Below are positions 4,108 through 46,683 of a stretch of DNA of 64,000 nt, piece by piece. Under the pieces are notes generated by a model that worked only from the letters and a program-made list of their open reading frames with translations, was not told the DNA's origin and ran no database searches. The stretch spans positions 31,882 through 95,881 of the forward strand of contig JAKAEA010000002.1 in NCBI GenBank assembly GCA_021818465.1, read 5' to 3'. Source of the stretch: a bacterium. Lineage in GTDB: Bacteria > Patescibacteriota > Minisyncoccia > Phycocordibacterales > JAKAEA01. The position numbers and the translations under genes are program-made. The number at the start of each line of letters is the position of its first letter. Within the stretch, counting starts at the first letter, position 1.

Positions 4108-4152
4108 TAAAAAGTATCTTTTTATTGTGCAAAAATTTTAGATGCTTTAGTT

Positions 4153-28654: not shown

Positions 28655-29875
28655 ATGGAAAAACCGCCAGCAATTGCTCTGGAAAATCCGCCCGTTGCCC
28701 TGGAGCAACAGTCCGTAACTCGTCGATCATTCAAGACCATGTACCTGGCGGTTTTTTTGTTGTCCCTGGTCACTGCCGGCACACTCTATATTAACTCCAG
28801 CTATCTGACACAATATTTTTCGGCAGGCTGGATGGAAGCACTCTATATTTTTGCGGCAATCGGCAATATCATCGGGTTAGTAATCGGGCCACGTGTCATT
28901 CGGCGCTGGAGCAATTTTCGTTGTCTACTTACCTATCTGATTGGCGAAACCGTTGCCCTGTTTGGACTGGCGACAATACATAATATCGTCATTGTCGCGC
29001 TCTTGTTTGTGGCGCAGCAAATGCTGCCGCCACTTGTGCTCTTTTCTTTTGACATCGTACTGGAGCACGCCATTGATACTGAGAGTATTACCGGTGGCGT
29101 GCGTTCACTGTATTTAACCGCGAGCAATGCCGCCTATGTTATCGTGCCGTTTTTTGTTGGCACAGTCATCAGTGCGTATTCGTTTCAGGCAGTGTATGCC
29201 ATCACCGGCATCGTCATGGTGCTTGTTGTTATTTTGGCACTCACCCGCTTCAATCGCACAGAGCCACAGCGATTTCGCCAGGTGAATATTTTTGAGAGCA
29301 TCCGCGGTTTCCCCAGTCGAGCAGGCATCCTCGAAGTGTTTGGCAGTGACCTATTGCTACAATCATTTTATGCAATCATGAGCATTTTTCTACCACTATA
29401 TTTGTTGTACGTGATGAAGTTTCCTTGGCAGACTATCGGCTTGATTATTTCAGTGATGCTCATTCCCTTCGTGATTTTCGAAGCGCCGCTCGGGCGAATT
29501 TTTGACTACTTCCGTGTGGAGCGCGACGTGATTATGGTTGGATTTTTTATTATGAGTGTCAGCACGATGATTATGTTTTTCGACAACAGTCACAGTGCCA
29601 TTACGTGGGCGGCGCTTCTTTTTATCGGACGTATTGGTTCCAGTTTTGTGGAAGTCGGTAATGAATATTCATTTTTCCGTCGGGTCAACGACAGTGACGC
29701 TGGATTCATCAGTGTATTTCGATCAACGTTTCCCCTCGCATATATTATCGGGCCGCTCGTACTAGCACTGCTCGGTTCATCATCATCACCACTCGCGCTA
29801 CTGTTGATCGCAGTACTGATGCTCTGCGGCATATTTGTAGCATACCGTTTACCACCACGACCTCGACGCGTTTAA
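28655..29875 (+). CDS. MFS-family transporter
   Basis: About 12 TM helices in two 6-helix halves separated by a basic loop (TRFNRTEPQRFRQ). Confidence 0.65.
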   Translation: MEKPPAIALENPPVALEQQSVTRRSFKTMYLAVFLLSLVTAGTLYINSSYLTQYFSAGWMEALYIFAAIGNIIGLVIGPRVIRRWSNFRCLLTYLIGETVALFGLATIHNIVIVALLFVAQQMLPPLVLFSFDIVLEHAIDTESITGGVRSLYLTASNAAYVIVPFFVGTVISAYSFQAVYAITGIVMVLVVILALTRFNRTEPQRFRQVNIFESIRGFPSRAGILEVFGSDLLLQSFYAIMSIFLPLYLLYVMKFPWQTIGLIISVMLIPFVIFEAPLGRIFDYFRVERDVIMVGFFIMSVSTMIMFFDNSHSAITWAALLFIGRIGSSFVEVGNEYSFFRRVNDSDAGFISVFRSTFPLAYIIGPLVLALLGSSSSPLALLLIAVLMLCGIFVAYRLPPRPRRV

Positions 29876-30333
29876 GCACTATCAAGCTGCGATGTACAAT
29901 TGGGGCAACGGTGAGCTTCAAGAGGAATACTGGTACAACACTGGGGACATATTTTCGTGGTAGCAGGCGGTGACACCTTTTTTGTAGTGCCACGATTTCG
30001 CCAATAAGTAATGTGCTTAATCACAAGGAATATAACAAAGGCAATGATAATAAATGAAATGAACGTATTGAGAAAATCACCATACTGCAAAATAGGCGCC
30101 CCGGCCGTTTGCGCAGCAGCTAGTGTTGGATAGGAAACACCATTAAGACTCAAGAAGAGAGTACTGAAATTAACGCTATTGAGTACAATACTGATTGGCG
30201 GGGTTATAATATCTTTAACGAGCGCGTTAACCACACCATTAAAAGCAGTGCCAATCATAATACCGACAGCTAAATCAATGACGCTGCCTTTAGTGGCAAA
30301 TTCTTTAAATTCGTTAAAAAACTTTTTCATCAA
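29872..30333 (-). CDS. mscL: Large-conductance mechanosensitive channel MscL with C-terminal CxxC...CxxC zinc-ribbon extension
   Basis: FKEFATKGSVIDLAVGIMIGTAFNGVVNALVKDIITPP aligns with the E. coli MscL TM1. The extra C-terminal tail is KICPQCCTSIPLEAHRCPNCTSQL. Confidence 0.85.
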   Translation of the reverse strand: MMKKFFNEFKEFATKGSVIDLAVGIMIGTAFNGVVNALVKDIITPPISIVLNSVNFSTLFLSLNGVSYPTLAAAQTAGAPILQYGDFLNTFISFIIIAFVIFLVIKHITYWRNRGTTKKVSPPATTKICPQCCTSIPLEAHRCPNCTSQLDSA

Positions 30334-30575
30334 TTGAGAAAATTGCCCGACAATGGCGCAGCATAGTTGTTAATAAATTGCGGAATAGCCCACACCAGTC
30401 CAATAGCTGGCAAAAGAATAGCGGCAACACTAATGATAACGGTAATGAGAAAATATAGTCGTAGACGATTCACGATTTTAGACAGTACGTCTATTTTGTG
30501 CTCAATAGCAGCGAGACGGGTGACAATGTCGTTTTGCTGTGGATCCATACGCCTATTATACCAGGCGCGCCTCAA
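30330..30575 (-). CDS. Small membrane protein (81 aa), hypothetical
   Basis: 4-nt ATGA overlap with mscL; single TM (LYFLITVIISVAAILLPAIGLVWAI). Confidence 0.4.
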   Translation of the reverse strand: MRRAWYNRRMDPQQNDIVTRLAAIEHKIDVLSKIVNRLRLYFLITVIISVAAILLPAIGLVWAIPQFINNYAAPLSGNFLN

Positions 30576-31311
30576 TCAACATAAAAAGTGGTATTTCCTT
30601 GCGAAGGCGGTCTTCTTCTTTTTGTCGAGGACCGTGTTGGGATTTTTTCGGCGAAATCCACTCTTCTAGGCGCGTAACCACGAAACCAGCAGCGGTGAGT
30701 AATTTGACATAGTATTGCAAAGGCCGATGAAATGAGATGGTTGCTTTTGATTTTTGTTGACCAGGATGAGCAACGATGTCTACCGTTTTTTCCGACAGAT
30801 AATAGTCCACGCGGCGATATTGTTTGTGCGTTGTTGCATCCCAACCCCACGCCGATCCTTGGGGAATGCGAAACGCCGGATGATTGAGGACGAGCTCTAG
30901 ACGACCCGATGGTTTCAATACTCGCGCGCACTCAACGAACGTTTCTTTGACCGACTGAATATTTTGAATGGCGAGCACACACACCGCACTATCTACAGCA
31001 CGATCAGCGAGAGGTAGTTTGTCGGCCGGAGTAACATAGAATTTTGGTTGCGGAGAAATATCGACTGTACTTTTTTGAGCATGCGCAATAAGGGTACTGC
31101 TTGCATCAACCCCCGTAACCAATGCTCCCGCTTGCGCAAGTGCAGCACTCACCACACCAGCACCGCAAGCCAAGTCGAGTACACCACAATCACGCACCGG
31201 ACCAAGAACACGTATAAGATTGGGAATGATGACCGTCTGATGATAACTGCGCGCATCAGCGGAGTAATCAGCGTACCAATCAGCAACCTTCTGCCACGAC
31301 GTATCTTTCAT
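30556..31311 (-). CDS. Class I SAM-dependent methyltransferase
   Basis: VLDLACGAGVVSAALAQAGALVTGVDAS motif I/II. Confidence 0.75.
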   Translation of the reverse strand: MKDTSWQKVADWYADYSADARSYHQTVIIPNLIRVLGPVRDCGVLDLACGAGVVSAALAQAGALVTGVDASSTLIAHAQKSTVDISPQPKFYVTPADKLPLADRAVDSAVCVLAIQNIQSVKETFVECARVLKPSGRLELVLNHPAFRIPQGSAWGWDATTHKQYRRVDYYLSEKTVDIVAHPGQQKSKATISFHRPLQYYVKLLTAAGFVVTRLEEWISPKKSQHGPRQKEEDRLRKEIPLFMLIEARLV

Positions 31312-31574
31312 GATTTAAAAAGTCTGCGGAAAAAACGTTTTAAAAACATGAGTCGCGTTTTAAGGCGAGCGTGGCGTCGATGCAAATCGTGACGTAATGT
31401 TTCGACATCATGAACAACGTTATTTGTTTCAGTCTCAATAGTTTTTGAAATACGAAAAAGAGTACGTACGGAAGCAATTGCATATATAAGTAGAATGAGA
31501 AGCGCGACTGCCAAACAGATAACCACAATAGTGGTAATAAAAAAGAAAATGTCGGCGTGAATGAAACTAGACAT
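31308..31574 (-). CDS. Small membrane protein (88 aa) with basic amphipathic C-terminus, hypothetical
   Basis: N-terminal TM (IFFFITTIVVICLAVALLILLIYAIA), Arg/Lys-rich C-terminus, 4-nt overlap with the methyltransferase gene. Confidence 0.4.
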   Translation of the reverse strand: MSSFIHADIFFFITTIVVICLAVALLILLIYAIASVRTLFRISKTIETETNNVVHDVETLRHDLHRRHARLKTRLMFLKRFFRRLFKS

Positions 31575-31586
31575 AGCGGTATGATA

Positions 31587-32660
31587 TCACGGCTTAGGAA
31601 GCAATGAAATGATAGGTTGACCAGCAGTTACTAATTGACCAATACTGGGGAGCCGCGCCGGCGCAGCCGGCGCGGCAATACTGCCGGCGGCCGGTGCGTG
31701 CAATGTAAGTTTAGCTAATGCCGCCAGTGTAGAACTAGCAACCGATTTAGCACTCGCCAGCGCACGGGCGGCCGCCGCTTCGTGACTAGCTAAATGGTTA
31801 TCGAGCACCACCGCAGAAGACGAAGCCTGCGGCATCTGCGTATCGTAGGTTAGGGCGTCTTGGGCTGAGAGAATACTATAAATAAGTGTATCGATACCTG
31901 TGCGAGCAGTCGCAATTTTTTGTTGCCACAGGTCTAATTGTGCTGTACTTGTAGCAGCACTCGTGCTCGCTTGTTGTTCTAGAAAATGTAAACTTTCTAG
32001 AAACAATTGAATTTCAGCAATGTCAGCAGTGGCATTTTGCGCAGTTGCAATAAGATCTGCCGACGTTGAGGAAGCAGAAACACTATTTTCTAAAGCAACA
32101 AGGTTGTCTACATTAGCAGTTACCGATGTTCGACCCGATTCCGCTGCTGCTGCAGACAGAGCATCGGCAGGAACAAGAAGCACCGGATTAGAACTTGTTG
32201 CGTTAATAAAAAGCGCATTCGTATGAGCCACCGCATTTTGTGTTGTTGTAGCCATGGTGGCAAGAACCGTACGCAATGTCTGACGATCTTTTTTAAAAAG
32301 TGCATTTTGATCGTTCGTAGCCTCACGCATTGCCGTGCGACTAAGTAGATTTTGTTCCGCGGCAACAGCTTGTAATTCTGCTGCTTTTGCTTCTGCAACA
32401 GCAACATTAACCTCAGCTTGTCGTACCGCAGCAGAAAGTGCACTATCGTCGAGACGCGCCACCACATCACCGGCAGCAACAGTGGTACCAATCGGCACCA
32501 CAAATGTTAACCGACCAGGCACGCTAAAATACATATTGAGAGGACGCTCTGCAGAAACAGTGGGGTGATTCCATCCCAACACCACAGCACTCACACCGAC
32601 ACCAACAGCCACGCCAAGTAACATTATTCCTCCTATATACACTATTCGTTGAATACGCAT
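31587..32660 (-). CDS. HlyD-family periplasmic adaptor / membrane-fusion-like protein
   Basis: N-terminal TM, biotin-lipoyl-like hairpins (VPIGTTVAAGDVVARLDD; LVTAGQPIISL) and a long Ala-rich coiled coil. Confidence 0.6.
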   Translation of the reverse strand: MRIQRIVYIGGIMLLGVAVGVGVSAVVLGWNHPTVSAERPLNMYFSVPGRLTFVVPIGTTVAAGDVVARLDDSALSAAVRQAEVNVAVAEAKAAELQAVAAEQNLLSRTAMREATNDQNALFKKDRQTLRTVLATMATTTQNAVAHTNALFINATSSNPVLLVPADALSAAAAESGRTSVTANVDNLVALENSVSASSTSADLIATAQNATADIAEIQLFLESLHFLEQQASTSAATSTAQLDLWQQKIATARTGIDTLIYSILSAQDALTYDTQMPQASSSAVVLDNHLASHEAAAARALASAKSVASSTLAALAKLTLHAPAAGSIAAPAAPARLPSIGQLVTAGQPIISLLPKP

Positions 32661-32905
32661 AATTAGTCAATAAGTTTGGTCCACCAATCAAATGTTAAAA
32701 ATAAAAAGAGGCCTAGAGTTCCATACACGGGCAAAAGCACTATAAACAATATTCTTTTCCAGGTAATTTTCATATTAAAGGGCCATAATACGCCACCAAA
32801 GTGCTTTTTGCAATGAAGCCCTTACAAAGAGATAAAAATTTTTTAAAGCCTAATCCACACTCTTATTTTTAAAAAAATCGACTATTTTGTTAATCTATTT
32901 ACTAT

Positions 32906-33580
32906 ATGCGAATGCTTATTGCGGACGACGATGCTACGGTGCGAGAATCCTTACGACGCGCTTTTGAAGAAGAACGAATTGTGGTTGACATTGCTACCGA
33001 CGGCGAGCGAGCTTCATATTTGGGACGAATCAATGAATACGATATTGCTATTATAGATCTCATTATGCCCAATAAAGACGGCTGCACCGTGTGTAGCGAC
33101 TTGCGCCACCGTGGACGCACCTTCCCCATTCTCGTACTTTCCGTCAATGCCACCACTGAACAGAAAGTGCGACTCTTAAATGTTGGCGCCGATGATTATA
33201 TGACAAAACCATTTTCCTTTCGGGAAATTTCTGCACGTGTTAAAGCCCTCACTCGTCGGCCACAACCGATTGAACCTGACGTCCTAGAAGTCGGCGATTT
33301 GCGCGTAGATACAGCTCAGCAAAAAGTGACTCGCGGTAAACGTGATATTTACCTAACACGTAAAGAATTTTCTCTCTTGGAATTTTTAATGCGGCGACAC
33401 GGACAAGTAATTTCGCGCGGTAGTATTATGGAACATATTTGGAACGCTGACGCAGATCCATTCTCAAACACCATAGAAGCCCACATTCTTAATATTCGAA
33501 AAAAAATTAGTGATACCAAACGTAATCGCCTCGTTCACACTGTTCCTGGTCGCGGTTACAAAGTAGACTGTACATCTTGA
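32906..33580 (+). CDS. OmpR-family response regulator
   Basis: Receiver domain (LIADDD...DLIMPNKDG...KPF) plus winged-helix Trans_reg_C (LTRKEFSLLEFLMRRHGQVISRGSIMEHIW). Confidence 0.9.
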   Translation: MRMLIADDDATVRESLRRAFEEERIVVDIATDGERASYLGRINEYDIAIIDLIMPNKDGCTVCSDLRHRGRTFPILVLSVNATTEQKVRLLNVGADDYMTKPFSFREISARVKALTRRPQPIEPDVLEVGDLRVDTAQQKVTRGKRDIYLTRKEFSLLEFLMRRHGQVISRGSIMEHIWNADADPFSNTIEAHILNIRKKISDTKRNRLVHTVPGRGYKVDCTS

Positions 33581-33583
33581 AAA

Positions 33584-34825
33584 ATGAGACACGACTCCAT
33601 ACTCAGCGTACTTTTGATTTCATTTATTATAGTAATTATTTTCGGTGACAGTTTAGCTATCACGCACTCGGTTTTAGTTGGTTATAGTGGTGTACATTTT
33701 TGGCTACTATCAAGTTTGCTACCTTTAGCCGTTGGATTATTGTGGTTGTCAAAAAGCGGTAAACCGGAACTTGCCGCACACGGTTTTATTTTGACACTTA
33801 TAGCTATAACAACATATGTGAGTTTCATCTGGGGTGCAAATCTTCAACATGCCCTGCTCGGTTCAGTCCTTGTTATTATTATCGCCAACGTGCTTATTGG
33901 TACCACATACAGTGTCATTGTTGCCACTATTATTTCTATCATCACTGTTATTCTTTGGGATTTACAAATTAGAGCAATCATTAAACCGCACTGGTTTTGG
34001 CAATACCCGTTACAATTTCATCACGCTACTGATTTTATTATTTTATTTTTTAGTATTACTGCCGTTCTGTGGTTATCCAATAGAGAAACTGAGCGAGTGG
34101 CACATACCGCGCACACGCTCTATCGTTTTGCTAAAGTTGGTAAACTCTCATCTGGTATTTTTCATGATCTTGCTAGTCCCCTTACCGCAGTAACGCTCAG
34201 CATAGAATATCTTAAACACCATCGCGACGATGCCTCTGCAGATCTCGAATCACATATCACGACCGCCCTCCGCGCGACAGATGAAATGCGAATGCTCATT
34301 ACCGCCATCAGTAAAAATCTTCATGGTCAAACTGATACGGTGAGTGTTTTTTCTGTATCTAAAGAAATTGGTGATGCAATAGCTGTATTAGCCTACAAAA
34401 GTCGCTTAGCTGGCGTACACATACAATATCGCAACAGCGATGCTTATTTTCTCCTCGGAAACTCGTTACGTTTTCATCAGGCAATTATTAATGTGTTGGC
34501 AAACGCTATTGATGCATGTGAGCGTAACGAGACAGGAACCACTCGGTTGTGCACGATTACGTGCACTGAAGAATCGAGGACCGTCTGGGTTGTCATTTCA
34601 AATAGTGGTCCAGAAATTCCCGAAGCAATACGACAATATATTTTTGATCCATTCTTTACCACAAAAACAAAAGGATACGGCAACGGCATAGGTCTATCTA
34701 TTACTAAAGAAATTGTAGAAAAAGAATTCGGTGGAAAGGTGCTGGTTGAAAGCACGCCAGCCAGTACAACATTTTATTTAGGATTTCCTAGTACTAAAGA
34801 TATTCGACTTCCCGTTCGAGCGTAA
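33584..34825 (+). CDS. Sensor histidine kinase (multi-TM sensor, HisKA, HATPase_c)
   Basis: Six N-terminal TM helices, H-box HDLASPLTAV, N-box and G-box (GNGIGLSITKEIVE). Confidence 0.85.
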   Translation: MRHDSILSVLLISFIIVIIFGDSLAITHSVLVGYSGVHFWLLSSLLPLAVGLLWLSKSGKPELAAHGFILTLIAITTYVSFIWGANLQHALLGSVLVIIIANVLIGTTYSVIVATIISIITVILWDLQIRAIIKPHWFWQYPLQFHHATDFIILFFSITAVLWLSNRETERVAHTAHTLYRFAKVGKLSSGIFHDLASPLTAVTLSIEYLKHHRDDASADLESHITTALRATDEMRMLITAISKNLHGQTDTVSVFSVSKEIGDAIAVLAYKSRLAGVHIQYRNSDAYFLLGNSLRFHQAIINVLANAIDACERNETGTTRLCTITCTEESRTVWVVISNSGPEIPEAIRQYIFDPFFTTKTKGYGNGIGLSITKEIVEKEFGGKVLVESTPASTTFYLGFPSTKDIRLPVRA

Positions 34826-36059: not shown

Positions 36060-38558
36060 CTACGCTACCTTTCCTTGTTGGATAGCTTGAATGTATTGCT
36101 CTACTTGTGATTTTGCTTGTGGATCTAATGTCTCTACTTTCTTAAGTGTTGCAATAGCATCAACACTATCTTTGACTAATAAGTATGCCCCGGCCAAAGA
36201 AACATAATTATTAACATTTGTAGGATCAATTGCCACCCGTTCTTGCCACATTTTCAGTACCGCCTTGTAATCCCCAATAAAATAGTAGGCGTGCAAAATT
36301 GCATCATTCGTCGCGAGCGTCGTTGTCGACACCGCCGGCGCTTGGAGAATCTGGTTAGCGAGTGTTTCATTTTTGTTGTAAATGGCGGCGGCAGCATACA
36401 GTAATTGTGCGGCTTGATCTTTTGTATCTAATTCATAAGCAGTTCGTAAGGTTTTCAGTGCGTTCACAAAATCCTCCTCGCCAATATACACTGAAGCAAT
36501 TTCAAAGAGAATGGTTTGTTTATCAGGAGATAGTTGCTGTGCTTTTTGGAGAAGCGGTAACGCCACCTGATACTGACCAGCGCTGGCAAGTACCGAACCA
36601 GGTAATAGATAGTAGCGTGCATCATACGGCGTGCGAGAAATTTGAATATTCGCCTGCTGCTCAACAAATGCGATGAGTTTATTTTCTTCAGTGACAAGAC
36701 CAGGGTCAGGTTGACCAGTGCCACTTTGCTGAGCAGAGTTAGCGACTTGCGTGGAAAGTTGATCAAGCGCGCCAAAAAGCTGTTCACGAATTTCCGGATC
36801 ACCAAAGGTACGCCAGGAGAGCGCCTGTTGATAGGCGGCAATGGTTTCCTCAACGGTCGGCTGGGTAGATGGATTAATAGCAGCAATCAAATCAACGTTA
36901 GCCATTATGGGCTTCACATTAACAAAGTACAGCAGCAGCACGAGCGCCACAGCGGTAATCGGTACAATAACCCGATTAGGTTGATAGCTAGCAGATGCTG
37001 TTTCAAGCACTTTTGTATCAGCGTCTACAGACATTGTCCGACGAGTATAGACATACGCCGCGATACTAACATAGAAAAGATAGCTTGCTATATTATCAAA
37101 CACAAAAAAGTTATTGATAAAGTAGCCAGCAAGCATGCCAGTTAATACTGATTTTTCCGCAACTGAAAAAGGATTATCACCCGCAATGCCGCCAAGACGT
37201 TTAAGATATCTTAAACTACGCCACCCCCGAGCGGTGTCAGTATCTTCAAGCAATGTGTAGTCGCGTTTCCCCACCCAGATATACCAGATGATCGACGCAA
37301 AGAGGGCGATATACGAAAGGAAGCCGAGCGCACCACCAGTGACGAGCCAATCAAAAATAATATTGTGAGCGCGATCAAACCACTGCTCGTCGGCATACAA
37401 CCGAGGATCGTAAAATTTATTAAAGACGTAGTTAAAACTTTCTTGACCCCAACCAAGTATCGGCCGCTCCAAGAAACCTTGCCAGGCCATACCCCACAAA
37501 ATGAGACGCGACTGAGTTGTAGTATTGTGAATTGAAATATCAGCAAAGCGTTTCAACGTGCCGTTATCCTTCATAAGGCTGGTATTTTTCAGACCAAAGA
37601 AAAGTATCAGTATAGCGACCATACCAATCACAATCCCCCAGCCTGTGCGACGCAACCAGCGGCGATCACGTTCAAAAATTCCTATGAGCAGTGCTACCAA
37701 ACCTAAGCCACCCAAAAAACCGAGAATGGCGCCGCGTGTTTCTGTTTCAAAAACTACCCAGAAGTCTAACAGGAACAGTAGAGCGTACAACCAATAGCCG
37801 CGCTCAAAGAGAGCAGAAAAAAGTAAGAGTAAGTCGCCAATAATAAGACCCGCGACGGTCCAAAACACTGCTGCCGGCAACATCGTCGAATTCACCGCTG
37901 TCGCTGTTAAATTAGGGGCAATAAAAGCAATGACACCGACGTTGAGACCAAGCGCAACAAACCAATGATTGCGAATGTTGAAATTCCCTTTTCGCCGCAC
38001 CAAGAAAAACAAAACCAAGAAAGCGCTAAAGAGCATGTAGATAGCGAGGTAGGCCGAGTTTCCCAGAGCCGCGTCAATACGTGTATTACCTTGATCAATA
38101 CGTAGCAAGCCGAATGTTTGCAAAAACGAAAAAAGAATCATCGCACCACTCGCGCCAATCCATGTTTGCCAGAGGCGCTCCCACATATCTTTCGTGAGAA
38201 TAGTGCCGGCAACAATACCATAACCAAGTAGATGTGCGAATGTTACCCACCCCTCCATGCGCTCAAAATTTGACCAGAAACTTTTATAGGGGTACTGACT
38301 ATGGAGATCGGCGATAAACATAATTGCCACCACCAACACTGCCGCCCAGCCTAACCAAGAATTTTTCGGACGGAATTTTGTGTTAGTCACCGCCAAAATA
38401 AGCCATGAACCGAAAATGATTTCGGTAATGATTCGGAAGTAAAAACCCTTACCGGTAATAAATGGAAAAAACAGATTATTAGAAACGAGGAGTGGCACGA
38501 AGGCAAGCGCAAACAAGCCGACGATGCACACCCATTGTAAAATACGGTTGAGCTTCAT
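36060..38558 (-). CDS. O-antigen ligase/polymerase-like (Wzy_C-type) polytopic membrane protein fused to C-terminal TPR repeats
   Basis: About 12 TM helices in the N-terminal 470 aa with a large periplasmic loop, then about 350 aa of TPR-like helical repeats. Confidence 0.65.
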   Translation of the reverse strand: MKLNRILQWVCIVGLFALAFVPLLVSNNLFFPFITGKGFYFRIITEIIFGSWLILAVTNTKFRPKNSWLGWAAVLVVAIMFIADLHSQYPYKSFWSNFERMEGWVTFAHLLGYGIVAGTILTKDMWERLWQTWIGASGAMILFSFLQTFGLLRIDQGNTRIDAALGNSAYLAIYMLFSAFLVLFFLVRRKGNFNIRNHWFVALGLNVGVIAFIAPNLTATAVNSTMLPAAVFWTVAGLIIGDLLLLFSALFERGYWLYALLFLLDFWVVFETETRGAILGFLGGLGLVALLIGIFERDRRWLRRTGWGIVIGMVAILILFFGLKNTSLMKDNGTLKRFADISIHNTTTQSRLILWGMAWQGFLERPILGWGQESFNYVFNKFYDPRLYADEQWFDRAHNIIFDWLVTGGALGFLSYIALFASIIWYIWVGKRDYTLLEDTDTARGWRSLRYLKRLGGIAGDNPFSVAEKSVLTGMLAGYFINNFFVFDNIASYLFYVSIAAYVYTRRTMSVDADTKVLETASASYQPNRVIVPITAVALVLLLYFVNVKPIMANVDLIAAINPSTQPTVEETIAAYQQALSWRTFGDPEIREQLFGALDQLSTQVANSAQQSGTGQPDPGLVTEENKLIAFVEQQANIQISRTPYDARYYLLPGSVLASAGQYQVALPLLQKAQQLSPDKQTILFEIASVYIGEEDFVNALKTLRTAYELDTKDQAAQLLYAAAAIYNKNETLANQILQAPAVSTTTLATNDAILHAYYFIGDYKAVLKMWQERVAIDPTNVNNYVSLAGAYLLVKDSVDAIATLKKVETLDPQAKSQVEQYIQAIQQGKVA

Positions 38559-38649
38559 AGTGGTGGTTGATAATTAATACGTCTTTCAATACTACCACAG
38601 AGATTTTTTCGCGCTAGCGGTTACTACTTGCTCATGCTACCATTTTTGC

Positions 38650-39933
38650 ATGTTTTCTGAGCTACGAAACCGCACGTATCGTTTTTTGCGCTGGAGCGAG
38701 CGTTATACAAAAATGGACATGATCTACTTGACATCTGGAAGTTTTTGGGCCGTATTTGGACAATTCTCTGCAGCCATTATTGCCTTTGGACTAGCAATTG
38801 CCGTAGCGCGTTTCGTATCCAAAGACGTCTACGGTACCTATAAATACGTTTTAGCTATCGTTTCAGTTGTCGCTACCCTTTCGCTAAGTGGCATTGGTCA
38901 GGCCGTCTTTCAATCCATCACTCGCGGCTTCCGTCGCTCGCTCTCCGACGGATTCTGGGCAAATTTACGCTGGAGTTTTTTAGTTTTTATAATCACTCTT
39001 ACTGTTGGTGGATACTACCTTTTCCAAGGCAATCAAACACTTGGTTTGGGTATTTTACTTGGTGGCTGTATAACACCATTTCTTTCCGGCTTTAATTTAT
39101 ACACATCACTCTTCTCTGGTGAAAAAGATTTTCGACGCGCAGCATGGTATGGCGACGTTGTCACCAACATCATTCCCGCACTCACCTTGATAGCGGTTGC
39201 CCTTATTGCTCCCACTGCACTCAATTTGGTTATCGCCTATTTTCTCGCAAACCTTGCTGCTGCTGCATATAGTTATTGGCGCGGCACACGACATTATCGT
39301 TCAACAGCCGATGCTGCACATGATCCTGATCTACTTTCGTATGGCAAACACCTAAGTTTAATGGCCGTCTTAAGTGGCATCGCTGGCAATATTGACCAAC
39401 TGCTACTTTTTCACTTTGGTGGCGCTATTGATCTTGCTATCTATAATTTTGCCATTGCTATTCCTGATCAAGCAAAAGGCCCTCTTAAGCAACTCGATAC
39501 GATGACACAAGCTCGTTTTGTTAATCGAACTACTCATGACATTCATACGAGTTTGCGTAACAAAATGCTGTGGCTCACTGCAACAAGTATTATTACTATA
39601 AGTGTTTACGTTATAGTCGCTCCATTCATCTACCAATTATTTTTCCCTGCGTACAGCATTGCTGCTGCGTATTCTCAAATTTATGCACTATCATTATTCT
39701 CAATGATTATAAGTCCTGCTGCTTCATATCTTTCAGCAAAAAAACGAGTACGAGCTCTGTATGTTAATACTTTCGGCAGTTCCATCTTACATATCGGACT
39801 TATGGTAATTGGTGTAGTTTGGTTTGGTTTATGGGGTTTAATTATTGCTCGCGTTTTCATTCGACTTGGTGGTGCTCTGTTATCACTTGGACTCTATTAC
39901 CGAACGACGCGTCTTGAACGAAAAACAATATGA
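38650..39933 (+). CDS. Polysaccharide biosynthesis protein / oligosaccharide flippase (Wzx, MOP superfamily)
   Basis: 427 aa with about 12-14 TM helices and Wzx-like topology. The stop overlaps the start of the downstream methyltransferase (ATGA). Confidence 0.6.
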   Translation: MFSELRNRTYRFLRWSERYTKMDMIYLTSGSFWAVFGQFSAAIIAFGLAIAVARFVSKDVYGTYKYVLAIVSVVATLSLSGIGQAVFQSITRGFRRSLSDGFWANLRWSFLVFIITLTVGGYYLFQGNQTLGLGILLGGCITPFLSGFNLYTSLFSGEKDFRRAAWYGDVVTNIIPALTLIAVALIAPTALNLVIAYFLANLAAAAYSYWRGTRHYRSTADAAHDPDLLSYGKHLSLMAVLSGIAGNIDQLLLFHFGGAIDLAIYNFAIAIPDQAKGPLKQLDTMTQARFVNRTTHDIHTSLRNKMLWLTATSIITISVYVIVAPFIYQLFFPAYSIAAAYSQIYALSLFSMIISPAASYLSAKKRVRALYVNTFGSSILHIGLMVIGVVWFGLWGLIIARVFIRLGGALLSLGLYYRTTRLERKTI

Positions 39934-40862
39934 AAAATATTCCATGTATATTGTGTGGAAAAAATAAAGCGGATACCGTAAAACGTCTGCGTGATATGCA
40001 TATGTATATTGATAGATCTACATTTACTCTTGTTCGCTGTCGCCAATGTGGTCTTATGTACCTAAATCCTCAACCAACAATAGAAGAATTGGCTCGTTAC
40101 TATCCTCCCCATTATTCTGCATACTGCAATGAAGTATCAGTTTTTGGACAAAATTATTTTTACAACGTTCTGCGACATATAAAACGTTTTTTTACATCGC
40201 ACCGTTCCATAAAAGTTTTTACAAAACTACACAACGATAACTCGAGTAAAACCGTTTTAGATTTCGGTTGTGGCAATGGCACCTACCTCTTAGGTTTACG
40301 TCACAACCACCCATCATGGAAACTATATGGTTCAGATATTCAAATAAATGAAACAGTAAAAAATGCACTTGAGAAAAATACTATCGTAACAATAATAGGA
40401 CCAACACACCTACCTTGGAAACAATTACCAACAAAAAGTTTTGATCGCATAACTCTTTTTCAAGTATTAGAACATGTAAATAATCCTCGTGAGGTTTTGG
40501 AAAATCTTCGACCGCTGCTTAAAAAAGATGGGGAGTTGCATATTGAAGTTCCTAATATTGCTACCTTAAAATTTAAAATTTTTGGACGTTATTTTTCCAA
40601 TCTTGATGCCCCGCGCCATCTCTATCATTTCTCACCCAATACACTTCAGCGTCTTTGTGAGCAGTGTGGTTTCCGTATTACGAAACTAGAGGTATCCGGC
40701 ACCACAAAAAGCACCGTACGCAGTCTATATAATTTGTTTCATATTCACAATCGCCAACTTGATCCGTTACTCTATAGTCTTGTGGATATACTCACAAAAT
40801 ATATCGGTAAAAATCGCCTTAATACCGAAGCGTTAGAGGTTAGATGTGTACCTGCCAAATAA
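39930..40862 (+). CDS. Class I SAM-dependent methyltransferase with N-terminal zinc-ribbon (CxxC...CxxC)
   Basis: CILCG...CRQCG zinc ribbon followed by the VLDFGCGNGTYLLGL SAM motif I. Confidence 0.7.
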   Translation: MKNIPCILCGKNKADTVKRLRDMHMYIDRSTFTLVRCRQCGLMYLNPQPTIEELARYYPPHYSAYCNEVSVFGQNYFYNVLRHIKRFFTSHRSIKVFTKLHNDNSSKTVLDFGCGNGTYLLGLRHNHPSWKLYGSDIQINETVKNALEKNTIVTIIGPTHLPWKQLPTKSFDRITLFQVLEHVNNPREVLENLRPLLKKDGELHIEVPNIATLKFKIFGRYFSNLDAPRHLYHFSPNTLQRLCEQCGFRITKLEVSGTTKSTVRSLYNLFHIHNRQLDPLLYSLVDILTKYIGKNRLNTEALEVRCVPAK

Positions 40863-41810
40863 TTTTTTTAACCAATGATATGGGCGTGGATAGTGCCATT
40901 TTAAAAACCATTTAAAACGTTGCATGTGTGTGCGGCCAATACCAAAAACATATTGAGAAGTGTACCGTTCCGCTTGTTGATTAATTACGAAAAAGTTAGG
41001 GTGCTTGAGTGGAAACATCATTGATTCGGATGGGATATTGGCAAGTGGATCATTTGGATTTTTTGCTGAGACTGCCTCTTGTCCAAAACCAATATTGGTC
41101 ACGAGATTAACACACGGATTAATGCAAAGACCACCTTGCGACAAAACTGCAAACGTCCACTGTCCATCCCATGACCGAATGCGATCTTCGTAATAGTCTT
41201 GGAAACGTTGTTCCCAACGGTAGGCTACCGCTGGATCAGAAAAGATATTGTATGTCAGTTGTTGCTTTCGTGCTTCAGGCCAATGCTGTACGTCAGGATC
41301 ATAATGCACCCAAGCACGTCGCCAACTTGCCCAACCCCAAATATGCGGGATGTGCGAAAAATAATAACTTTCTCGACAAACAAATTTTTTATTATTTTGT
41401 TGAAAATTATTACCACCAATATGCATCACCCGCGTATCATCAGCATAACGTTCTAAAAGTTCTTCGCAAAAACGAAAAAAACTCTGATTTGGTAAACAAT
41501 CATGCTCAAGAATAATAGCGCGTTCTTCGTTTTCAAAAATCCACTGAAGACCAGTTGCTAAACGACGTTTTACGTCCATGTGTTCTGTAGCATAATTAGT
41601 TCGCACTTCACACCAATCAATTTTCTCCACAAGCGCTTTGCTAGCAGCAAACCTTGCCTTATCTGCGGGCGTTTGCCCTTCATCACAAAAGCAATAGAGT
41701 ATTTTCGGCCGCGCTTCTTTAATGGCAGCAATCACACGCGTCAGTGTTTCGGTTCGATTAGAAAGCACGAGAGCAACGGGTGTGTGTAGTTGATATATTT
41801 TTTCATTCAT
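40833..41810 (-). CDS. Putative glycosyltransferase (GT-A-like; HlpA/EPS-cluster-like), family uncertain
   Basis: 325-aa soluble protein inside the glycan cluster with DxD-like acidic motifs (ILEHDCLP). Internal Met at 41810 (MNEKIYQL) is the likely start. Assignment is by context and weak resemblance only. Confidence 0.35.
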   Translation of the reverse strand: MNEKIYQLHTPVALVLSNRTETLTRVIAAIKEARPKILYCFCDEGQTPADKARFAASKALVEKIDWCEVRTNYATEHMDVKRRLATGLQWIFENEERAIILEHDCLPNQSFFRFCEELLERYADDTRVMHIGGNNFQQNNKKFVCRESYYFSHIPHIWGWASWRRAWVHYDPDVQHWPEARKQQLTYNIFSDPAVAYRWEQRFQDYYEDRIRSWDGQWTFAVLSQGGLCINPCVNLVTNIGFGQEAVSAKNPNDPLANIPSESMMFPLKHPNFFVINQQAERYTSQYVFGIGRTHMQRFKWFLKWHYPRPYHWLKKLFGRYTSNL

Positions 41811-43050
41811 AAAAAGCAGTATAGACTTTTTCTGTGCGTTGCACCCAATCATCTAGAGAAAAAAGATTTTTGACTCTTTTATAACCAGCTATTCCTAATG
41901 TGTGTTGTAATTTTTGATCAGCAAGAATTTTTTCTAGAGCAACAGAAAAAGCATGTATATCGTTCGGATCAATAATGAATCCTGTTTCTCCATTTTTTAC
42001 CATTTCAGGAGTACCGCCCCAACATGTGCCCACAACTGGTTTACGAGAAGCCATCGCTTCCAACACAACCGTCGGTAATGGATCAAGATAAAGGGATGGC
42101 ACCACAACAACACTCGCCGCCGCGTATATTGTCGTCAGCTCATCACCACTAAGCCAGCCCATGCTCACCACGTTTTCTTTCATTCCCCACGCTGCTGCTT
42201 GTTGTATTAGTTGATTACTATATGCAGTAGATGCACCAAGAAGTACGAGAGTCGCTGATGGTTCTTTATGTATCACGTGTCGCATCGCTTGTAGTATTAC
42301 ATTACCACCTTTAGAAGCACTTATTCGTCCACCAAACAACACAATTCGCTTTTGTTCTAGGTGATTTTTTTTAATATACACATCTACTTGCTGTACTTGC
42401 ACATCCCATGCCTCTACAGCAATACCGTTATGTATCATTGCAATATTATGAATACCATTTTCTTGTAACGCACTTTGGAGAGCATTACTAACAGCAAATA
42501 TTTTATGAACATTTTTTAATAAAATTTTAATAAAAATATTTCTAAAAGGATTGTATCGGAATCGGTATTCACACCACTGCTGCCATGCTGATAACACATA
42601 ATTCCCTTTTTTATTTTTAAAAAGTTTTCCGTAATGCACAAGCATTGCATCATGTGCGGTTAAAAAGACTTTTGCACCACTTCGATGTGCTTGATGAAGC
42701 GTCCAATACGACAAATGATAATGAATATTGTGCGCATGCACTACATCTGGTTTTATTTCTCTAAGCAAACGACTCACTGTTGAAACTGTTGTTGGATTAT
42801 ACAGGCTTCGCCACCCTCGCCAACGCTCGGTGTAGTTAGAATATATCCGCTCTACTCGAATCCCATCTTCGTAAAATGTGCCTGTATGTGCACGATTTCC
42901 AACCGCAGTAATAACAGTTACTGTATGCTTTCGCCGAACAAGTGCACGAGCAAGCGTATGTGCAACAATCCCTGCCCCACCCTTAGCATATGGTGGAAAA
43001 TCGTCTTGAAGAAAAAGTATGTTCATTTTTTTTGAAATACTGCGCACCAC
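41803..43050 (-). CDS. Glycosyltransferase family 4
   Basis: N-terminal GGAGIVAHTLARAL Gly-rich motif and C-terminal Glycos_transf_1 (LVLLGAS...; EAMASRKPVVGT). Confidence 0.8.
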   Translation of the reverse strand: MVRSISKKMNILFLQDDFPPYAKGGAGIVAHTLARALVRRKHTVTVITAVGNRAHTGTFYEDGIRVERIYSNYTERWRGWRSLYNPTTVSTVSRLLREIKPDVVHAHNIHYHLSYWTLHQAHRSGAKVFLTAHDAMLVHYGKLFKNKKGNYVLSAWQQWCEYRFRYNPFRNIFIKILLKNVHKIFAVSNALQSALQENGIHNIAMIHNGIAVEAWDVQVQQVDVYIKKNHLEQKRIVLFGGRISASKGGNVILQAMRHVIHKEPSATLVLLGASTAYSNQLIQQAAAWGMKENVVSMGWLSGDELTTIYAAASVVVVPSLYLDPLPTVVLEAMASRKPVVGTCWGGTPEMVKNGETGFIIDPNDIHAFSVALEKILADQKLQHTLGIAGYKRVKNLFSLDDWVQRTEKVYTAFYE

Positions 43051-43712
43051 CCTATAGTATGTTTACGATTGGCAACAGAATGGTCACGACGATCACGCCA
43101 TATCGCTAACCGACCCCATAGAGCAAAAATCTTGCTGGCTATTCGCCCCCCCCAAGGATGGTTGTGCAGATGGAATACGTCTATATAAAATCGCATAGCC
43201 ATTTGAGCTCGCGTTGAAAAATATCCACCGCGCTGATCGATACTAATAAGTTTTAGATCATGCCGTTCAAAAAGTGCGACTAGTCCATAGCGAGTATAAC
43301 GCCAATAATCGTGTGGTTCTTCATGAAGTTCATTCCACTGCGGTACTGTAATAAGTAGGTATCCATCTTTTCTTAGAACTCTCCCCACTTCCGTTGCGGC
43401 TTGTTCAGGATTTTCCACATGCTCAAAAACCTGCGTTGAAATTATTGCATCGAAACATGTATCAGGAAATGGTAATTTTTCAGCACGTCCCACCACATCA
43501 ACATTTTCGCCGGCAGCAATATCCATACGTACATACTCAGTTACTGTCGTTGGCAGTTCATATCGCTCAAACTGACCACTACCAATATTTAATGTTTTTC
43601 CTTTTAAATATCTGATTTTTTCAGCAATTTGTTTCTGTAAAAGAAACCTGTCAACTTGAAAAATATACATATGTTTATGAATTGTATTAACCGAGTATAT
43701 GCACAATCTCAT
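43023..43712 (-). CDS. Class I SAM-dependent methyltransferase (Methyltransf_11-like)
   Basis: TLNIGSGQFER...FDAIISTQVFEHVENP...LRKDGYLLITVP. True start is probably an internal Met near 43670. Confidence 0.7.
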   Translation of the reverse strand: MRLCIYSVNTIHKHMYIFQVDRFLLQKQIAEKIRYLKGKTLNIGSGQFERYELPTTVTEYVRMDIAAGENVDVVGRAEKLPFPDTCFDAIISTQVFEHVENPEQAATEVGRVLRKDGYLLITVPQWNELHEEPHDYWRYTRYGLVALFERHDLKLISIDQRGGYFSTRAQMAMRFYIDVFHLHNHPWGGRIASKIFALWGRLAIWRDRRDHSVANRKHTIGWCAVFQKK

Positions 43713-44811
43713 GAATAACCATTTCTACTGAAATAGCCTCGACCTGCCGCCGCGCCTCGACTCTATTATACATACGAGCGTTCATAATATGCAGCTGTGG
43801 CGCGCGACGTGTATGATCAAATACGACTCGATTTTTTTCGCTCCGCGGCGGCTGCTCCTGTTCACTCATTGGACCGAGAATATCGACCGTCGGGACATTA
43901 AAAGCTTCGGCTATATACAATGGACCAGTATCAACACTTACAAAAATTTTTGCTTGAGCAATAAGCGCCTTGAGTTCATCTAAAGAAAAAAGTTCGCTGA
44001 CGTTTATAACGCCACGCTGTCCATGAAGCGCTGCTACCATAGCTGCAACTTCTTCTGTATCACGTTTACCGCCAATAATAATAACCGGTATATGGCGAGC
44101 AATAAAATATTCAGCCACCTGCGCAAAACGTTCGGCTGGCCAATTTTTTATTTTGTTTCCTGCAGACGGTGATATAAGAGCAAATTCACCTCGCATCACG
44201 TTTTTGTCGTGCAGAAATTTTTCTATGGTTAACCGTGCAGCATCAGAATAGCCGAGTCGCTTGGTTGTATCGTTATTGGTTATACTAAGCGGCTCCAACA
44301 GTCGCATATACTCTCGAGGAGCATACTGATACATTGTATGAGGACGTGTTTCGGCAACGTGACGCAGTAACACATATGGTTTTGTTTCATACGGACTCCA
44401 ACCGCCTTCTACTCGCGGCACAGCAATCACACGCACACCACCGAGATACATCGCCGACAGCGCTCGAAAATCCGGCACAACAGTGCACCCAAAATCAAAA
44501 TTCTCTTGCCGAATCAATCGGATTAATTCTTTCGTTGAAAATTTGTCGTAAGAAATATACGCATCAACATCGTGGTTATATGCGAGCACCTCGCGATTAA
44601 GCGAATTACCAACAACAGTAAGTAGTACATGAGGATATGTTGCTTTCAGTGCCCGAAACACTGGCGTAGTGCACACCATGTCCCCTAACTTTGCTCCCTG
44701 AAACACAATAACTTTTTGAGGGGTTTGTACCTCGCCTTTAGCAAATCCACGAAATGGAAAAAAAACGAAACTTTTTAATAACAAAAATATATTTTGAAAT
44801 CTAGAATTCAT
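43687..44811 (-). CDS. Glycosyltransferase family 9 (heptosyltransferase-like)
   Basis: VIVFQGAKLGDMVCTTPVFRALKATYPHV N-terminal motif and C-terminal VDTGPLYIAEAFNVPTVDILGP motif. Confidence 0.7.
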   Translation of the reverse strand: MNSRFQNIFLLLKSFVFFPFRGFAKGEVQTPQKVIVFQGAKLGDMVCTTPVFRALKATYPHVLLTVVGNSLNREVLAYNHDVDAYISYDKFSTKELIRLIRQENFDFGCTVVPDFRALSAMYLGGVRVIAVPRVEGGWSPYETKPYVLLRHVAETRPHTMYQYAPREYMRLLEPLSITNNDTTKRLGYSDAARLTIEKFLHDKNVMRGEFALISPSAGNKIKNWPAERFAQVAEYFIARHIPVIIIGGKRDTEEVAAMVAALHGQRGVINVSELFSLDELKALIAQAKIFVSVDTGPLYIAEAFNVPTVDILGPMSEQEQPPRSEKNRVVFDHTRRAPQLHIMNARMYNRVEARRQVEAISVEMVIHEIVHILG

Positions 44812-45674
44812 AGGTGCAGAAAATTTTTAAGGCGCACATACATCGCAATAGCATCAGACACTTTCGCTTTAAATTGCCCGAAGGTGGTTGAAGAATCTAT
44901 AGAATTTCTTTTTAATTCATATAGAGCATCACCAGCATGAACAATACCCTCGTGCACGGTCACCCCCGCACAGTAACCAGTTTCGTGGGCAATGGTGACA
45001 GTTTCGTCAGTATATTTACCTTTTGGATACGCAATAACGGGCTCAGGTATGTGCACGAGTTTTTGTATATCAGCAAGTGCTGTGTGCAATTCGTATCGCT
45101 GCTCTTCTCGTGTCGCCTCGCGCAAGATGCGGTGCGTCGCTGTATGTGGCATAAAATCAATACGTCCCTGATGAGCAACATCTGTAACCTCTGCCGCAGT
45201 AACTATATCAGACGTACCGAGCAATTTGCTGGCAATAAATACGGTCGCCGGAAACCCTACGTCATTCAAAACTGGTAGCGCGTGTGTTAAAAAATTTTTA
45301 TATCCATCGTCAAAGGTAATAACGACGCTTGGTTGCAGTGTTCGACCAGCTCGCATATCGCGCACTACCTCACTAAGCCGTCGCACTAAAAATTTCTTCT
45401 CTTTCAAATACATCATCTGCCGCCGAAATTCCTGCACGGAAACCGTAAAAAACCGACTATCTTCCCCCACCGAGTGATACATTAAAATGCTCACCCCGGA
45501 AAGGCGCGGCTTCCACATCCGCAAGAAAAAAAATAAGATTGATTTAATAACCGCTTTCATGATTTTTTTCCATAAACGCAAGAATCGCTTGAGCTCGCCT
45601 ATCCCACGTATAAGCTTGAACATCACGTAATGCTTGTGTAGCCCGACGAGAGGCCTCTTCTTTGTTAGCAACAA
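44808..45674 (-). CDS. Polysaccharide deacetylase (NodB-homology)
   Basis: ITFDDGYKNF catalytic motif 1 and downstream His motifs. The track ORF overlaps the upstream GT4 gene; the true start is likely an internal Met near 45518-45560. Confidence 0.7.
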   Translation of the reverse strand: MLLTKKRPLVGLHKHYVMFKLIRGIGELKRFLRLWKKIMKAVIKSILFFFLRMWKPRLSGVSILMYHSVGEDSRFFTVSVQEFRRQMMYLKEKKFLVRRLSEVVRDMRAGRTLQPSVVITFDDGYKNFLTHALPVLNDVGFPATVFIASKLLGTSDIVTAAEVTDVAHQGRIDFMPHTATHRILREATREEQRYELHTALADIQKLVHIPEPVIAYPKGKYTDETVTIAHETGYCAGVTVHEGIVHAGDALYELKRNSIDSSTTFGQFKAKVSDAIAMYVRLKNFLHL

Positions 45675-46683
45675 CTGACTGGATTTTCACCGCGAGTGCA
45701 TCAACATCGCCTGGAGGCACTAGAAATGCATTCTTCTCTGATAAAATTTCCCGAATACTTGGCAAATCAGAGGCAACAATAGGTGTGCCGCTTGCCATAT
45801 ATTCAAAAAGCTTCAACGGCGAGGTGTAGCGTTCAGAATTAGCATCACCACGCGTATTAGGTAATACGAGAACATCCGCCACCTGAAGATACGCGGCAAC
45901 TTCAGCATGTTTTTTTCTACCAATTAGTAGAAGATTTTTTGCCGTTGGATACGTGGTTTGAATAGTCGCTATTTCGTGTTCGTTACCACCAACAGCAACG
46001 ACAACAATGTTTTCTGGTAATTTCTCAGCGGCTCGCAGAAGTACATCAACCCCCTTCCAGTCATACAAATAGAAACTACCAACATACATAGCTATTTTTT
46101 TCTCAACAGGTAAACCGAGTTGGTGTCGAATCTGGTGATGAGAATTCAAGGCATTAAAAGCCTGAAGATTAACACCATCTGGCGCAACAATTATTTTTGA
46201 TTCTGGAATACCTTGTGCAACAATTTCCTCTTTTAGATATTTCGTGAGTACAACAATTTTTTGTGCTCGCCGCCACACTAGTCGCTGCCACCGAGAAATA
46301 TGCTTCGGCAAATCGTGAACTTCTAAAACAAAATTTTTAAACATGAGTCCCACTCGTGGTTCGCGAGTATAGAGCACGTCAGACGACTCACGAGCCAATA
46401 CACGACGCGCCATCCAGAGAAATGTTATTGTTTGAATCCAAAAACCCAACGCTCCAATAGGCCATCCCACCGCATCAACACACCACAGATATTTAATAGA
46501 AAATGTTTTGTTAATTCCATAATAGGTAAAAGGATTTTCAATAATCGGTGTGGCTCGTCGTGGCACCAAAAGGTGCACATCGGCGCCTGCCTTTGCAAAG
46601 GCAGCACACATTTCCATAATCTGCACACCATGTGCTTTTTCCGTCGGTAAGCGTATGTTAGCAATGTAGTAAAATCGCTTCAT
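45544..46683 (-). CDS. Glycosyltransferase family 4
   Basis: C-terminal Glycos_transf_1 (IGRKKHAEVAAYLQVADVLVLPN...LKLFEYMASGTPIVASDLPSIREIL). Confidence 0.8.
   Translation of the reverse strand: MKRFYYIANIRLPTEKAHGVQIMEMCAAFAKAGADVHLLVPRRATPIIENPFTYYGINKTFSIKYLWCVDAVGWPIGALGFWIQTITFLWMARRVLARESSDVLYTREPRVGLMFKNFVLEVHDLPKHISRWQRLVWRRAQKIVVLTKYLKEEIVAQGIPESKIIVAPDGVNLQAFNALNSHHQIRHQLGLPVEKKIAMYVGSFYLYDWKGVDVLLRAAEKLPENIVVVAVGGNEHEIATIQTTYPTAKNLLLIGRKKHAEVAAYLQVADVLVLPNTRGDANSERYTSPLKLFEYMASGTPIVASDLPSIREILSEKNAFLVPPGDVDALAVKIQSVVANKEEASRRATQALRDVQAYTWDRRAQAILAFMEKNHESGY

Follow-up and report, generated by a model that had tools for sequence, protein, structure and literature searches.

Does a mechanosensitive channel that is packed into one gene string with a membrane-fusion-type adaptor and a methyltransferase belong to a dedicated device, or do these genes lie side by side for other reasons? 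The locus that raises this question occupies positions 29872-32660 of the minus strand in a 64,000-nt stretch of the Patescibacterial contig JAKAEA010000002.1, which was analysed as a whole and is called here the window. A preliminary description of this DNA had reported five genes at the locus and had proposed that they might represent an export or osmotic-release device or a regulated channel complex. Our analyses indicate that the region is probably a two-layer, densely packed Patescibacterial (Paceibacteria-like) gene string and no single dedicated machine. The first layer would be an inherited, lineage-specific cassette made up of a micropeptide, a C-terminally truncated HlyD-family adaptor, a small membrane protein (TM88), a widespread methyltransferase and a second small membrane protein (TM72). 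This cassette would be embedded in an old housekeeping synteny, in which ribonucleotide reductase (RNR) genes stand upstream and the methyltransferase gene converges on genes for a major facilitator superfamily (MFS) transporter, RNase J and SBP5. The second layer would be the gene of the large-conductance mechanosensitive channel MscL, here with a zinc-ribbon tail, which a single insertion would have placed between TM72 and the convergent MFS gene.

Gene content and packing of the locus

All five open reading frames (ORFs) reported at 29872-32660 are present. Along the minus strand they run in the order HlyD-family adaptor, TM88, methyltransferase, TM72 and MscL. Family scores and the fold search bore out the identities first given to them: MscL with a tail of four cysteines (Cys4), an HlyD-like adaptor, an S-adenosylmethionine (SAM) methyltransferase and two small membrane proteins. 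The sizes and junctions had to be corrected in part, and a sixth gene had been overlooked. It encodes a micropeptide of 36 aa (32663-32773, minus strand) and precedes the five-gene string by 2 nt. Read directly from the strand, 12 nt separate the adaptor stop from the ATG of TM88, TM88 and the methyltransferase overlap in ATGA, 7 nt separate the methyltransferase stop from the ATG of TM72 at 30548, and TM72 overlaps MscL by 1 nt in TGATG. All six genes therefore share a strand, with junctions that span -4 to 12 nt. The protein first described as 81 aa most likely has 72, starting at ATG 30548 and not at TTG 30575, because all TM72 homologues begin there, directly 3' of the methyltransferase stop. 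MscL most likely starts at ATG 30330, which gives a protein of 152 aa.

The tight junctions had been taken as a sign of co-translation. The overlaps exist, but a median gap of 13 nt is found genome-wide: in the window this is the median for genes on the same strand, 24 of 46 such pairs are 15 nt or less apart, and about 95% of the window is covered by coding sequence (greedy ORF set). The spacing of the six genes is the norm of this genome and no closer than chance gives here. At another locus (L091), a zinc-ribbon MscL overlaps an unrelated glycosyltransferase family 2 (GT2) gene by 1 nt. Because packing is genome-wide and even an unrelated gene can overlap MscL in this way, spacing is no evidence for a dedicated unit. 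The 3' ends of convergent genes overlap as well, by 4 nt between MscL and the MFS gene (29872-29875) and by 32 nt between a histidine kinase gene and MurB (34794-34825); this leaves no space for terminators and shows how extreme the packing is.

Promoter and terminator scans of the region gave matches at background frequency. The Rfam scan of the window found three tRNAs only, with no match inside the region. Judged by the layout, co-transcription of the string with MscL is plausible: MscL would probably be read from the transcript of the upstream string, starting at a conserved promoter-like element before the micropeptide.

Conservation and history of the gene order

The gene order was compared over a context set of 90 loci, which comprised the contigs of homologues and 80 GTDB species loci, mapped with local hidden Markov models. 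The first adaptor homologues revealed the order adaptor, TM88, methyltransferase and TM72 in L002, L003, L006 and the window contig, while the contig of L005 is cut short; a metagenome scan with the adaptor alignment added one new locus (L093). The complete string of micropeptide, adaptor, TM88, methyltransferase and TM72 was found in the window, L002, L003, L006, L007/8/12, L009, L011 and L093, and these are the eight cassettes that can be read at their downstream end. MscL directly follows TM72 in only three of the eight (window, L003 and L011). In L002, L006, L007/8/12, L009 and L093, TM72 abuts the next gene, which is the convergent MFS gene or, in L006, TrmB, and there is no room for MscL. 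The gene order is thus conserved in relatives as far as the four-gene string is concerned, but MscL accompanies it only in L003 and L011, the two nearest relatives. The proposal of a functional MscL/HlyD/methyltransferase device fails on this point, since MscL follows the cassette in one subclade only.

In a neighbour-joining tree of the methyltransferases, the cassettes with a truncated adaptor are monophyletic, and the three genomes with MscL form a nested subclade within them. Because the MscL-bearing cassettes fall into one nested subclade, the parsimonious reading of the sequences is that an ancestor shared by the window, L003 and L011 gained MscL once, and recently, at the boundary between TM72 and the convergent MFS gene.

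Of the 90 loci, 42 have a convergent MFS gene on the downstream side of the methyltransferase region, as a rule with RNase J (26 loci) and SBP_bac_5 (22 loci) next. Upstream of the methyltransferase, 19 loci have a TM88 homologue, recognised by the motif M.TLIHADIFFF.TTI; an adaptor match occurs in 16 loci, TM72 in 10 and MscL in five. The TM72 homologues are confined to a single clade, that of the truncated adaptor. The order of methyltransferase, convergent MFS, RNase J and SBP5 is kept across Paceibacteria among functionally unrelated genes, and for this reason we read the synteny here as a mark of descent and not of function. In distant loci a YtxH-like gene is inserted upstream, and the TM88 relatives of L010 and L039 adjoin YtxH-like stress-type proteins.

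Other genes were seen downstream of the methyltransferase. In L014, L015 (6770-6997), L022, L024, L031, L039 and L087, the place of TM72 is taken by a Cys-rich acidic protein of ~70 aa with the motif HY.CSECG..S...GTCQTD.C..QG..L..C.C.DG.H, which belongs to no Pfam family. In L068 (6762-7642), L076 and L080, the methyltransferase is followed by a DUF1003/DUF948-like membrane protein of ~155 aa with DEIQEDV repeats. A canonical, Cys-free MscL comes next in L068, a second and apparently independent occurrence of MscL near this methyltransferase.

The MscL channel and its cysteine tail

The MscL gene (29872-30330, minus strand) encodes a member of PF01741 (127.1 bits with a cut-off of 27.4, 6e-37) and TIGR00220 (99.3 bits, cut-off 71) that we assign to a subfamily with a zinc-ribbon tail. 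Its AlphaFold2 (AF2) model, with a predicted local distance difference test (pLDDT) score of 70, has helices at 2-14, 17-49 (transmembrane (TM) helix TM1) and 83-114 (TM2), with a periplasmic loop between the TM helices, and Foldseek matched it best to the MscL structures 4y7k and 2oar. By its sequence the channel domain is canonical: it shares the N-terminal amphipathic helix, TM1, loop, TM2 and basic linker with the MscL proteins of Escherichia coli and Mycobacterium tuberculosis (2OAR).

The C-terminus is different. The subfamily profile matched E. coli MscL at 7e-39, with profile positions 3-126 aligned to residues 2-118. The alignment stops at residue 118, which is the end of the linker, and the Cys4 motif comes next, which confirms that the tail lies outside canonical MscL. 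Since the E. coli match ends at the linker, the tail replaces the C-terminal helix: the E. coli and M. tuberculosis channels have at this place the helix of a five-helix bundle, whereas the window protein has a Cys4 knuckle. The C-terminal helix of MscL forms a pentameric cytoplasmic bundle, which is typical of the family but is not known to be essential for gating. Both termini of MscL are cytoplasmic, and the knuckle would thus be cytoplasmic too.

The tail (29890-29949, minus strand) reads C128 P Q C131 ... R C142 P N C145 T S, that is C128-x2-C131 ... C142-x2-C145 with the pattern CPxC-x10-CPxC. We surveyed the best 120 of 810 MscL relatives found at E<=1e-3, and all 120 carried a CxxC...CxxC tail, with the consensus TTK[DE]CP[FY]C..[ST]IP..A.RCPNCTS.L. 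Residues C128, C131, R141, C142, C145 and T146 were invariant in an alignment of 55 sequences. Tailed MscL proteins among these best relatives span Acidobacteriota, Desulfuromonadales and Patescibacteria; the sources named among those listed were Bryobacteraceae, Acidobacteriia, Desulfuromonadales, Candidatus Acidoferrales and Candidatus Taylorbacteria. The tail turned out to be common, but we found the variant described neither in the literature nor in curated models: no paper on a zinc-ribbon-tailed MscL was found, none of the eight NCBIfam MscL models reaches into the tail, and none of the solved MscL structures covers it. In the literature on the candidate phyla radiation (CPR), MscL was met only as a routine item in a transporter inventory.

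A structural check of the tail had also been suggested. The AF2 model contains two short strands in this segment (pLDDT about 70-77), and Foldseek superposed it on RanBP2-type and zinc-ribbon knuckles at a root-mean-square deviation of ~1 Å with E-values that were not significant (E>0.1). Scores for the Pfam families DZR and Zn_ribbon_15 and for Cas12f TNB were under the cut-offs. We consider the tail a putative zinc ribbon, which from its cysteine pattern would bind zinc.

The window MscL shares 52-64% identity with zinc-ribbon MscLs from several phyla and only ~40% with two other Paceibacterial MscLs, which is compatible with acquisition of the gene. Relatives of the zinc-ribbon type that occur elsewhere (57-60% identical) sit after GT2/GtrA genes, with no adaptor or methyltransferase nearby. 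The window protein most likely works alone, as an autonomous homopentameric osmotic safety valve that would open under membrane tension in an emergency, and five Cys4 knuckles would hang below its pore in place of the five-helix bundle.

The truncated HlyD-family adaptor

The adaptor gene (31587-32660, minus strand) encodes a periplasmic adaptor of 357 aa, and public gene calls start it at M13. It had no Pfam HlyD match, and its matches to NCBIfam HlyD and resistance-nodulation-division (RND) adaptor models were all under the cut-offs. The assignment comes from an AF2 model, Foldseek, hhalign and a profile search. The model (pLDDT 71) places a TM helix at 2-30, strands at 41-70 and 319-355, and helices at 73-316, a helical region of about 245 residues in five helices. 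The architecture is that of an N-terminal TM helix and a split lipoyl-type domain with a long helical insert, and the chain ends right after the second lipoyl half. Foldseek ranked EmrA (4tko, 3.5e-7) first, then HlyD, LipC and MacA.

The positional orthologue in L039 is a full-length protein of 436 aa, an HlyD-family adaptor by Pfam, with ~80 extra C-terminal residues. In hhalign it matched query columns 35-356 with a probability of 98.9% and an E-value of 1e-17. A word-index search with the window adaptor gave five matches. The profile search, which was exhaustive over 1.84 billion representatives, recovered 300 at E<=1e-10: a few proteins of the same length, and then hundreds of ~510-525 aa, of which the query covers residues ~58-372. 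Ten of the ~520-aa relatives were scanned against Pfam and mostly matched HlyD_3/HlyD_D23 above the cut-offs. Full-length relatives carry 80-170 more residues than the window protein.

The HlyD-like call thus stands as to homology, but the docking domains are gone. EmrA (4TKO), HlyD (5C21), LipC (5NEN) and MacA (3FPP) have the TM anchor, split lipoyl domain and helical insert in common with the window adaptor. Known HlyD-family adaptors have in addition a beta-barrel and a membrane-proximal domain, and their helices form a hairpin, whereas the window model lacks both the beta-barrel (HlyD_3/HlyD_D23) and the membrane-proximal domain, and its five helices are not a simple hairpin. It is through these two domains that known adaptors dock on their transporter. 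As judged from sequence and model, the 357-aa protein is an HlyD-family adaptor after loss of both. The truncation is no sequencing artefact, because all members have the same length and the next gene is only 12 nt away.

Searches with MacB and ABC ATPase queries (tblastn) found nothing in the 64-kb window, and no partner gene of the ATP-binding cassette (ABC), RND or DHA2 type adjoins the adaptor. We also considered whether the adaptor and the convergent MFS transporter might pair as in EmrAB, and rejected this; the transporter has 406 aa, is encoded on the opposite strand and stays beside the methyltransferase in loci without an adaptor match.

The gene before TM88 varies among the loci and can be a full adaptor (L039), an ABC ATPase after a MacB/FtsX permease (L075), a MacB permease (L022), Gmad2 or others. 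In L075 (1-2826), an adaptor C-terminus, a MacB/FtsX-type permease and an ABC ATPase lie upstream of a TM88 homologue and the methyltransferase, and in L022 (4045-5567) a MacB/FtsX-type permease lies immediately upstream of this pair. Because full adaptors and MacB/ABC genes occupy the same position in relatives, the comparison suggests that the window adaptor is left over from an exporter locus of the MacAB type. In monoderm and CPR bacteria, ABC exporter loci of this type have permease and ATPase; the relatives hold a full adaptor (L039) or permease and ATPase genes (L075, L022) at the equivalent position, whereas the window clade keeps the truncated adaptor only. Our best guess is that the truncated adaptor and the small membrane proteins would form a residual envelope scaffold, or a pump-less tube, derived from such a locus.

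The micropeptide and the element upstream of it

The unannotated sixth gene, which stops 2 nt short of the adaptor ATG, encodes the peptide MKITWKRILFIVLLPVYGTLGLFLFLTFDWWTKLID; this peptide is basic at its N-terminus and consists of one hydrophobic, TM-like helix. Between the response-regulator and adaptor genes, the DNA of the window, L003 and L011 is 81% identical, and inside the short ORF most of the substitutions are synonymous. The gene lies upstream of every truncated-adaptor gene whose upstream region can be read (L002, L003, L005, L006, L007, L009 and L011). Pairwise differences among seven homologues numbered 155, 75 and 383 at the first, second and third codon positions, a pattern that indicates a coding sequence under purifying selection. 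The micropeptide matched no Pfam, NCBIfam or PADLOC family, and its gene is missing from the public gene calls.

The association with the adaptor is not universal, since L024 has the peptide without an adaptor. There (4073-4294, plus strand) two tandem copies of the peptide are fused into a single ORF that comes right behind the RNR small-subunit gene, and a 166-aa membrane protein and a Gmad2 protein follow.

A micropeptide with one TM helix beside transport-related genes recalls AcrZ with AcrB, and the window locus presents the same picture; we found no sequence relationship between the small membrane proteins of the window and small transporter partners such as AcrZ.

Upstream of the micropeptide, a consensus scan located the promoter-like element TTGCAA-17-TATTAT (32785-32813, minus strand), which is conserved in the alignment of the window, L003 and L011. 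From its sequence and position it is the probable start of the transcription unit.

The methyltransferase, TM88 and TM72

The methyltransferase gene (30556-31311, minus strand) encodes a class I SAM-dependent enzyme of 251 aa, with 70.4 bits against Methyltransf_11 (cut-off 21.2, 2e-19) and 64.4 bits against Methyltransf_25 (cut-off 27). Its relatives fill 3555 clusters at E<=1e-10; they are 50-60% identical and, where named, come from Parcubacteria, Paceibacterota or Patescibacteria. The nearest solved structure is that of an uncharacterised protein (3bkw), matched over the full length at 8e-13. With the 3BKW (Mesorhizobium mll3908) and 3G5L type the window enzyme shares the Methyltransf_11/25 domain and full-length similarity that includes the C-terminal cap. 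It differs from that type in belonging to a distinct and highly conserved Patescibacterial subfamily, whose invariant motifs include NHP..R, SWGWD, SFHRPLQ.Y and GPRQKEEDR.RKE.

Two identities were tried and rejected. Homologues are named UbiE/MenG at the JGI, but TIGR01934 gave 60.6 with a cut-off of 158 and all UbiE equivalogs were far under; the cut-offs of the UbiE/MenG, BioC and other equivalogs were not reached. A defence-system reading was examined with PADLOC, which matched the SAM-binding region of the methyltransferase to mad2 (mads_2) at 2e-15 and none of the other five proteins to anything. We judged this match to be generic domain similarity because no other component of the system is present.

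TM88 (31308-31574, minus strand) is a bitopic membrane protein of 88 aa in which a short N-terminal stretch leads into the only TM helix and the C-terminus is a basic amphipathic helix; its topology is predicted by the positive-inside rule. Its only matches were FtsL-like and all sub-threshold. TM72 (30330-30548, minus strand), also bitopic, has 72 aa with an N-terminal helix and one TM helix, and matched no family.

Flanking genes

The convergent MFS transporter (28655-29875, plus strand, 406 aa) matched MFS_1 at 1.5e-21 and is strongly conserved. Its C-terminus (...AYRLPPRPRRV) is identical in L009 (6022-7218, minus strand), where the methyltransferase is only ~60% identical. On the other side of the string, domain matches confirmed the divergent OmpR-type two-component system reported at 32906-34825: a response regulator with Response_reg and Trans_reg_C (32906-33580, plus strand) and a histidine kinase with HATPase_c (33584-34825, plus strand). 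Only the window, L003 and L011 have it as the immediate upstream neighbour of the cassette; the other cassettes have the RNR small subunit there. Beyond the two-component system and MurB, the public gene calls contain a cell-surface polysaccharide cluster (36060-45700) with a Wzy_C/TPR protein, a Polysacc_synt flippase, a Methyltransf_23 protein and GT4 glycosyltransferases.

Discussion

Several observations weigh against reading the locus as a packed string in two layers. The TM72/MscL junction overlaps, by 1 or 4 nt, in all three genomes that have MscL, and the two-component system adjoins the cassette in exactly these three. A newly evolved regulatory or functional link may therefore exist in the window/L003/L011 subclade. 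Only eight cassettes could be read downstream, all of them from metagenomes. Moreover, the truncated adaptor, the micropeptide, TM88 and TM72 are, to judge from their sequences, clearly under selection, and because they are conserved they presumably still act in the envelope.

One rival reading is a young envelope or osmotic-stress operon, in which the OmpR-type system drives one transcript in the subclade and MscL, through solute release, acts together with the adaptor and small membrane proteins as a scaffold, with no need for a single complex. Such an operon would account for six genes on one strand with junctions of -4 to 12 nt, for the conserved promoter-like element upstream of the micropeptide, for the presence of MscL and the two-component system in the same three genomes, and for the YtxH-like stress-type neighbours of TM88 relatives in L010 and L039. 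We nevertheless find it unlikely, since the three genomes are closely related and their co-occurrence amounts to one or two events and not to independent support, and since tight junctions are uninformative in this genome and the promoter and terminator scans stayed at background. Less probable again is a pair of readings in which the parts have new functions: that micropeptide, truncated adaptor (TM anchor, lipoyl ring and helical tube), TM88 and TM72 would form a pump-less, envelope-spanning assembly of one CPR lineage, to which the window subclade would add the zinc-ribbon MscL and the two-component system; and, separately, that this large MscL subfamily would be a valve tuned by metal or redox state through its zinc-ribbon tail.

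A physical channel-adaptor device, as the preliminary description envisaged, would have the adaptor tube docked on MscL or on the small membrane proteins as a conduit for export or release, with the methyltransferase modifying cargo or a subunit. The adaptor does retain the TM anchor, the lipoyl domain and the long helices, no conventional pump gene lies nearby, and translational coupling extends to MscL. We consider this device highly improbable all the same: MscL is missing in five of the eight readable cassettes, the adaptor has lost the very parts that in known systems touch the partners in the inner membrane, thousands of genomes have the methyltransferase with neither adaptor nor MscL beside it, and the symmetries do not match, as MscL is a pentamer and adaptors are hexamers. 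Still a little less credible is a locus for a ribosomally synthesised and post-translationally modified peptide (RiPP) or a bacteriocin-like product, with the micropeptide as precursor, the methyltransferase as modifying enzyme, the HlyD-like protein as exporter and the small membrane proteins as immunity factors. The mix of a small peptide, a methyltransferase, an HlyD-like protein and small TM proteins is superficially similar, but the micropeptide is a hydrophobic TM-like helix that is highly conserved between genomes and lacks both a leader and a double-glycine motif, the window yielded no exporter of the ABC or peptidase kind, L024 carries the peptide without the adaptor, and the methyltransferase is widespread in Patescibacteria with other neighbours. 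We thus retain the two-layer gene string as the likely explanation.

The apparent channel-adaptor machine was a tempting false lead, which the analysis has now removed. In the streamlined genomes of CPR bacteria, neither overlapping genes on the same strand nor a long-conserved gene order is by itself a sign of a functional complex. What is new at this locus is limited to variants of known families, namely a zinc-ribbon MscL, a truncated adaptor and an unannotated micropeptide. The conserved 36-aa membrane micropeptide had been overlooked by the public gene calls. The adaptor represents an HlyD-family lineage that is under selection despite the loss of its transporter-docking domains. The role of the C-terminal helical bundle of MscL has long been debated, and the window protein belongs to a large, multi-phylum MscL subfamily, present in no paper that we found and in no curated model, in which a Cys4 knuckle replaces that bundle.

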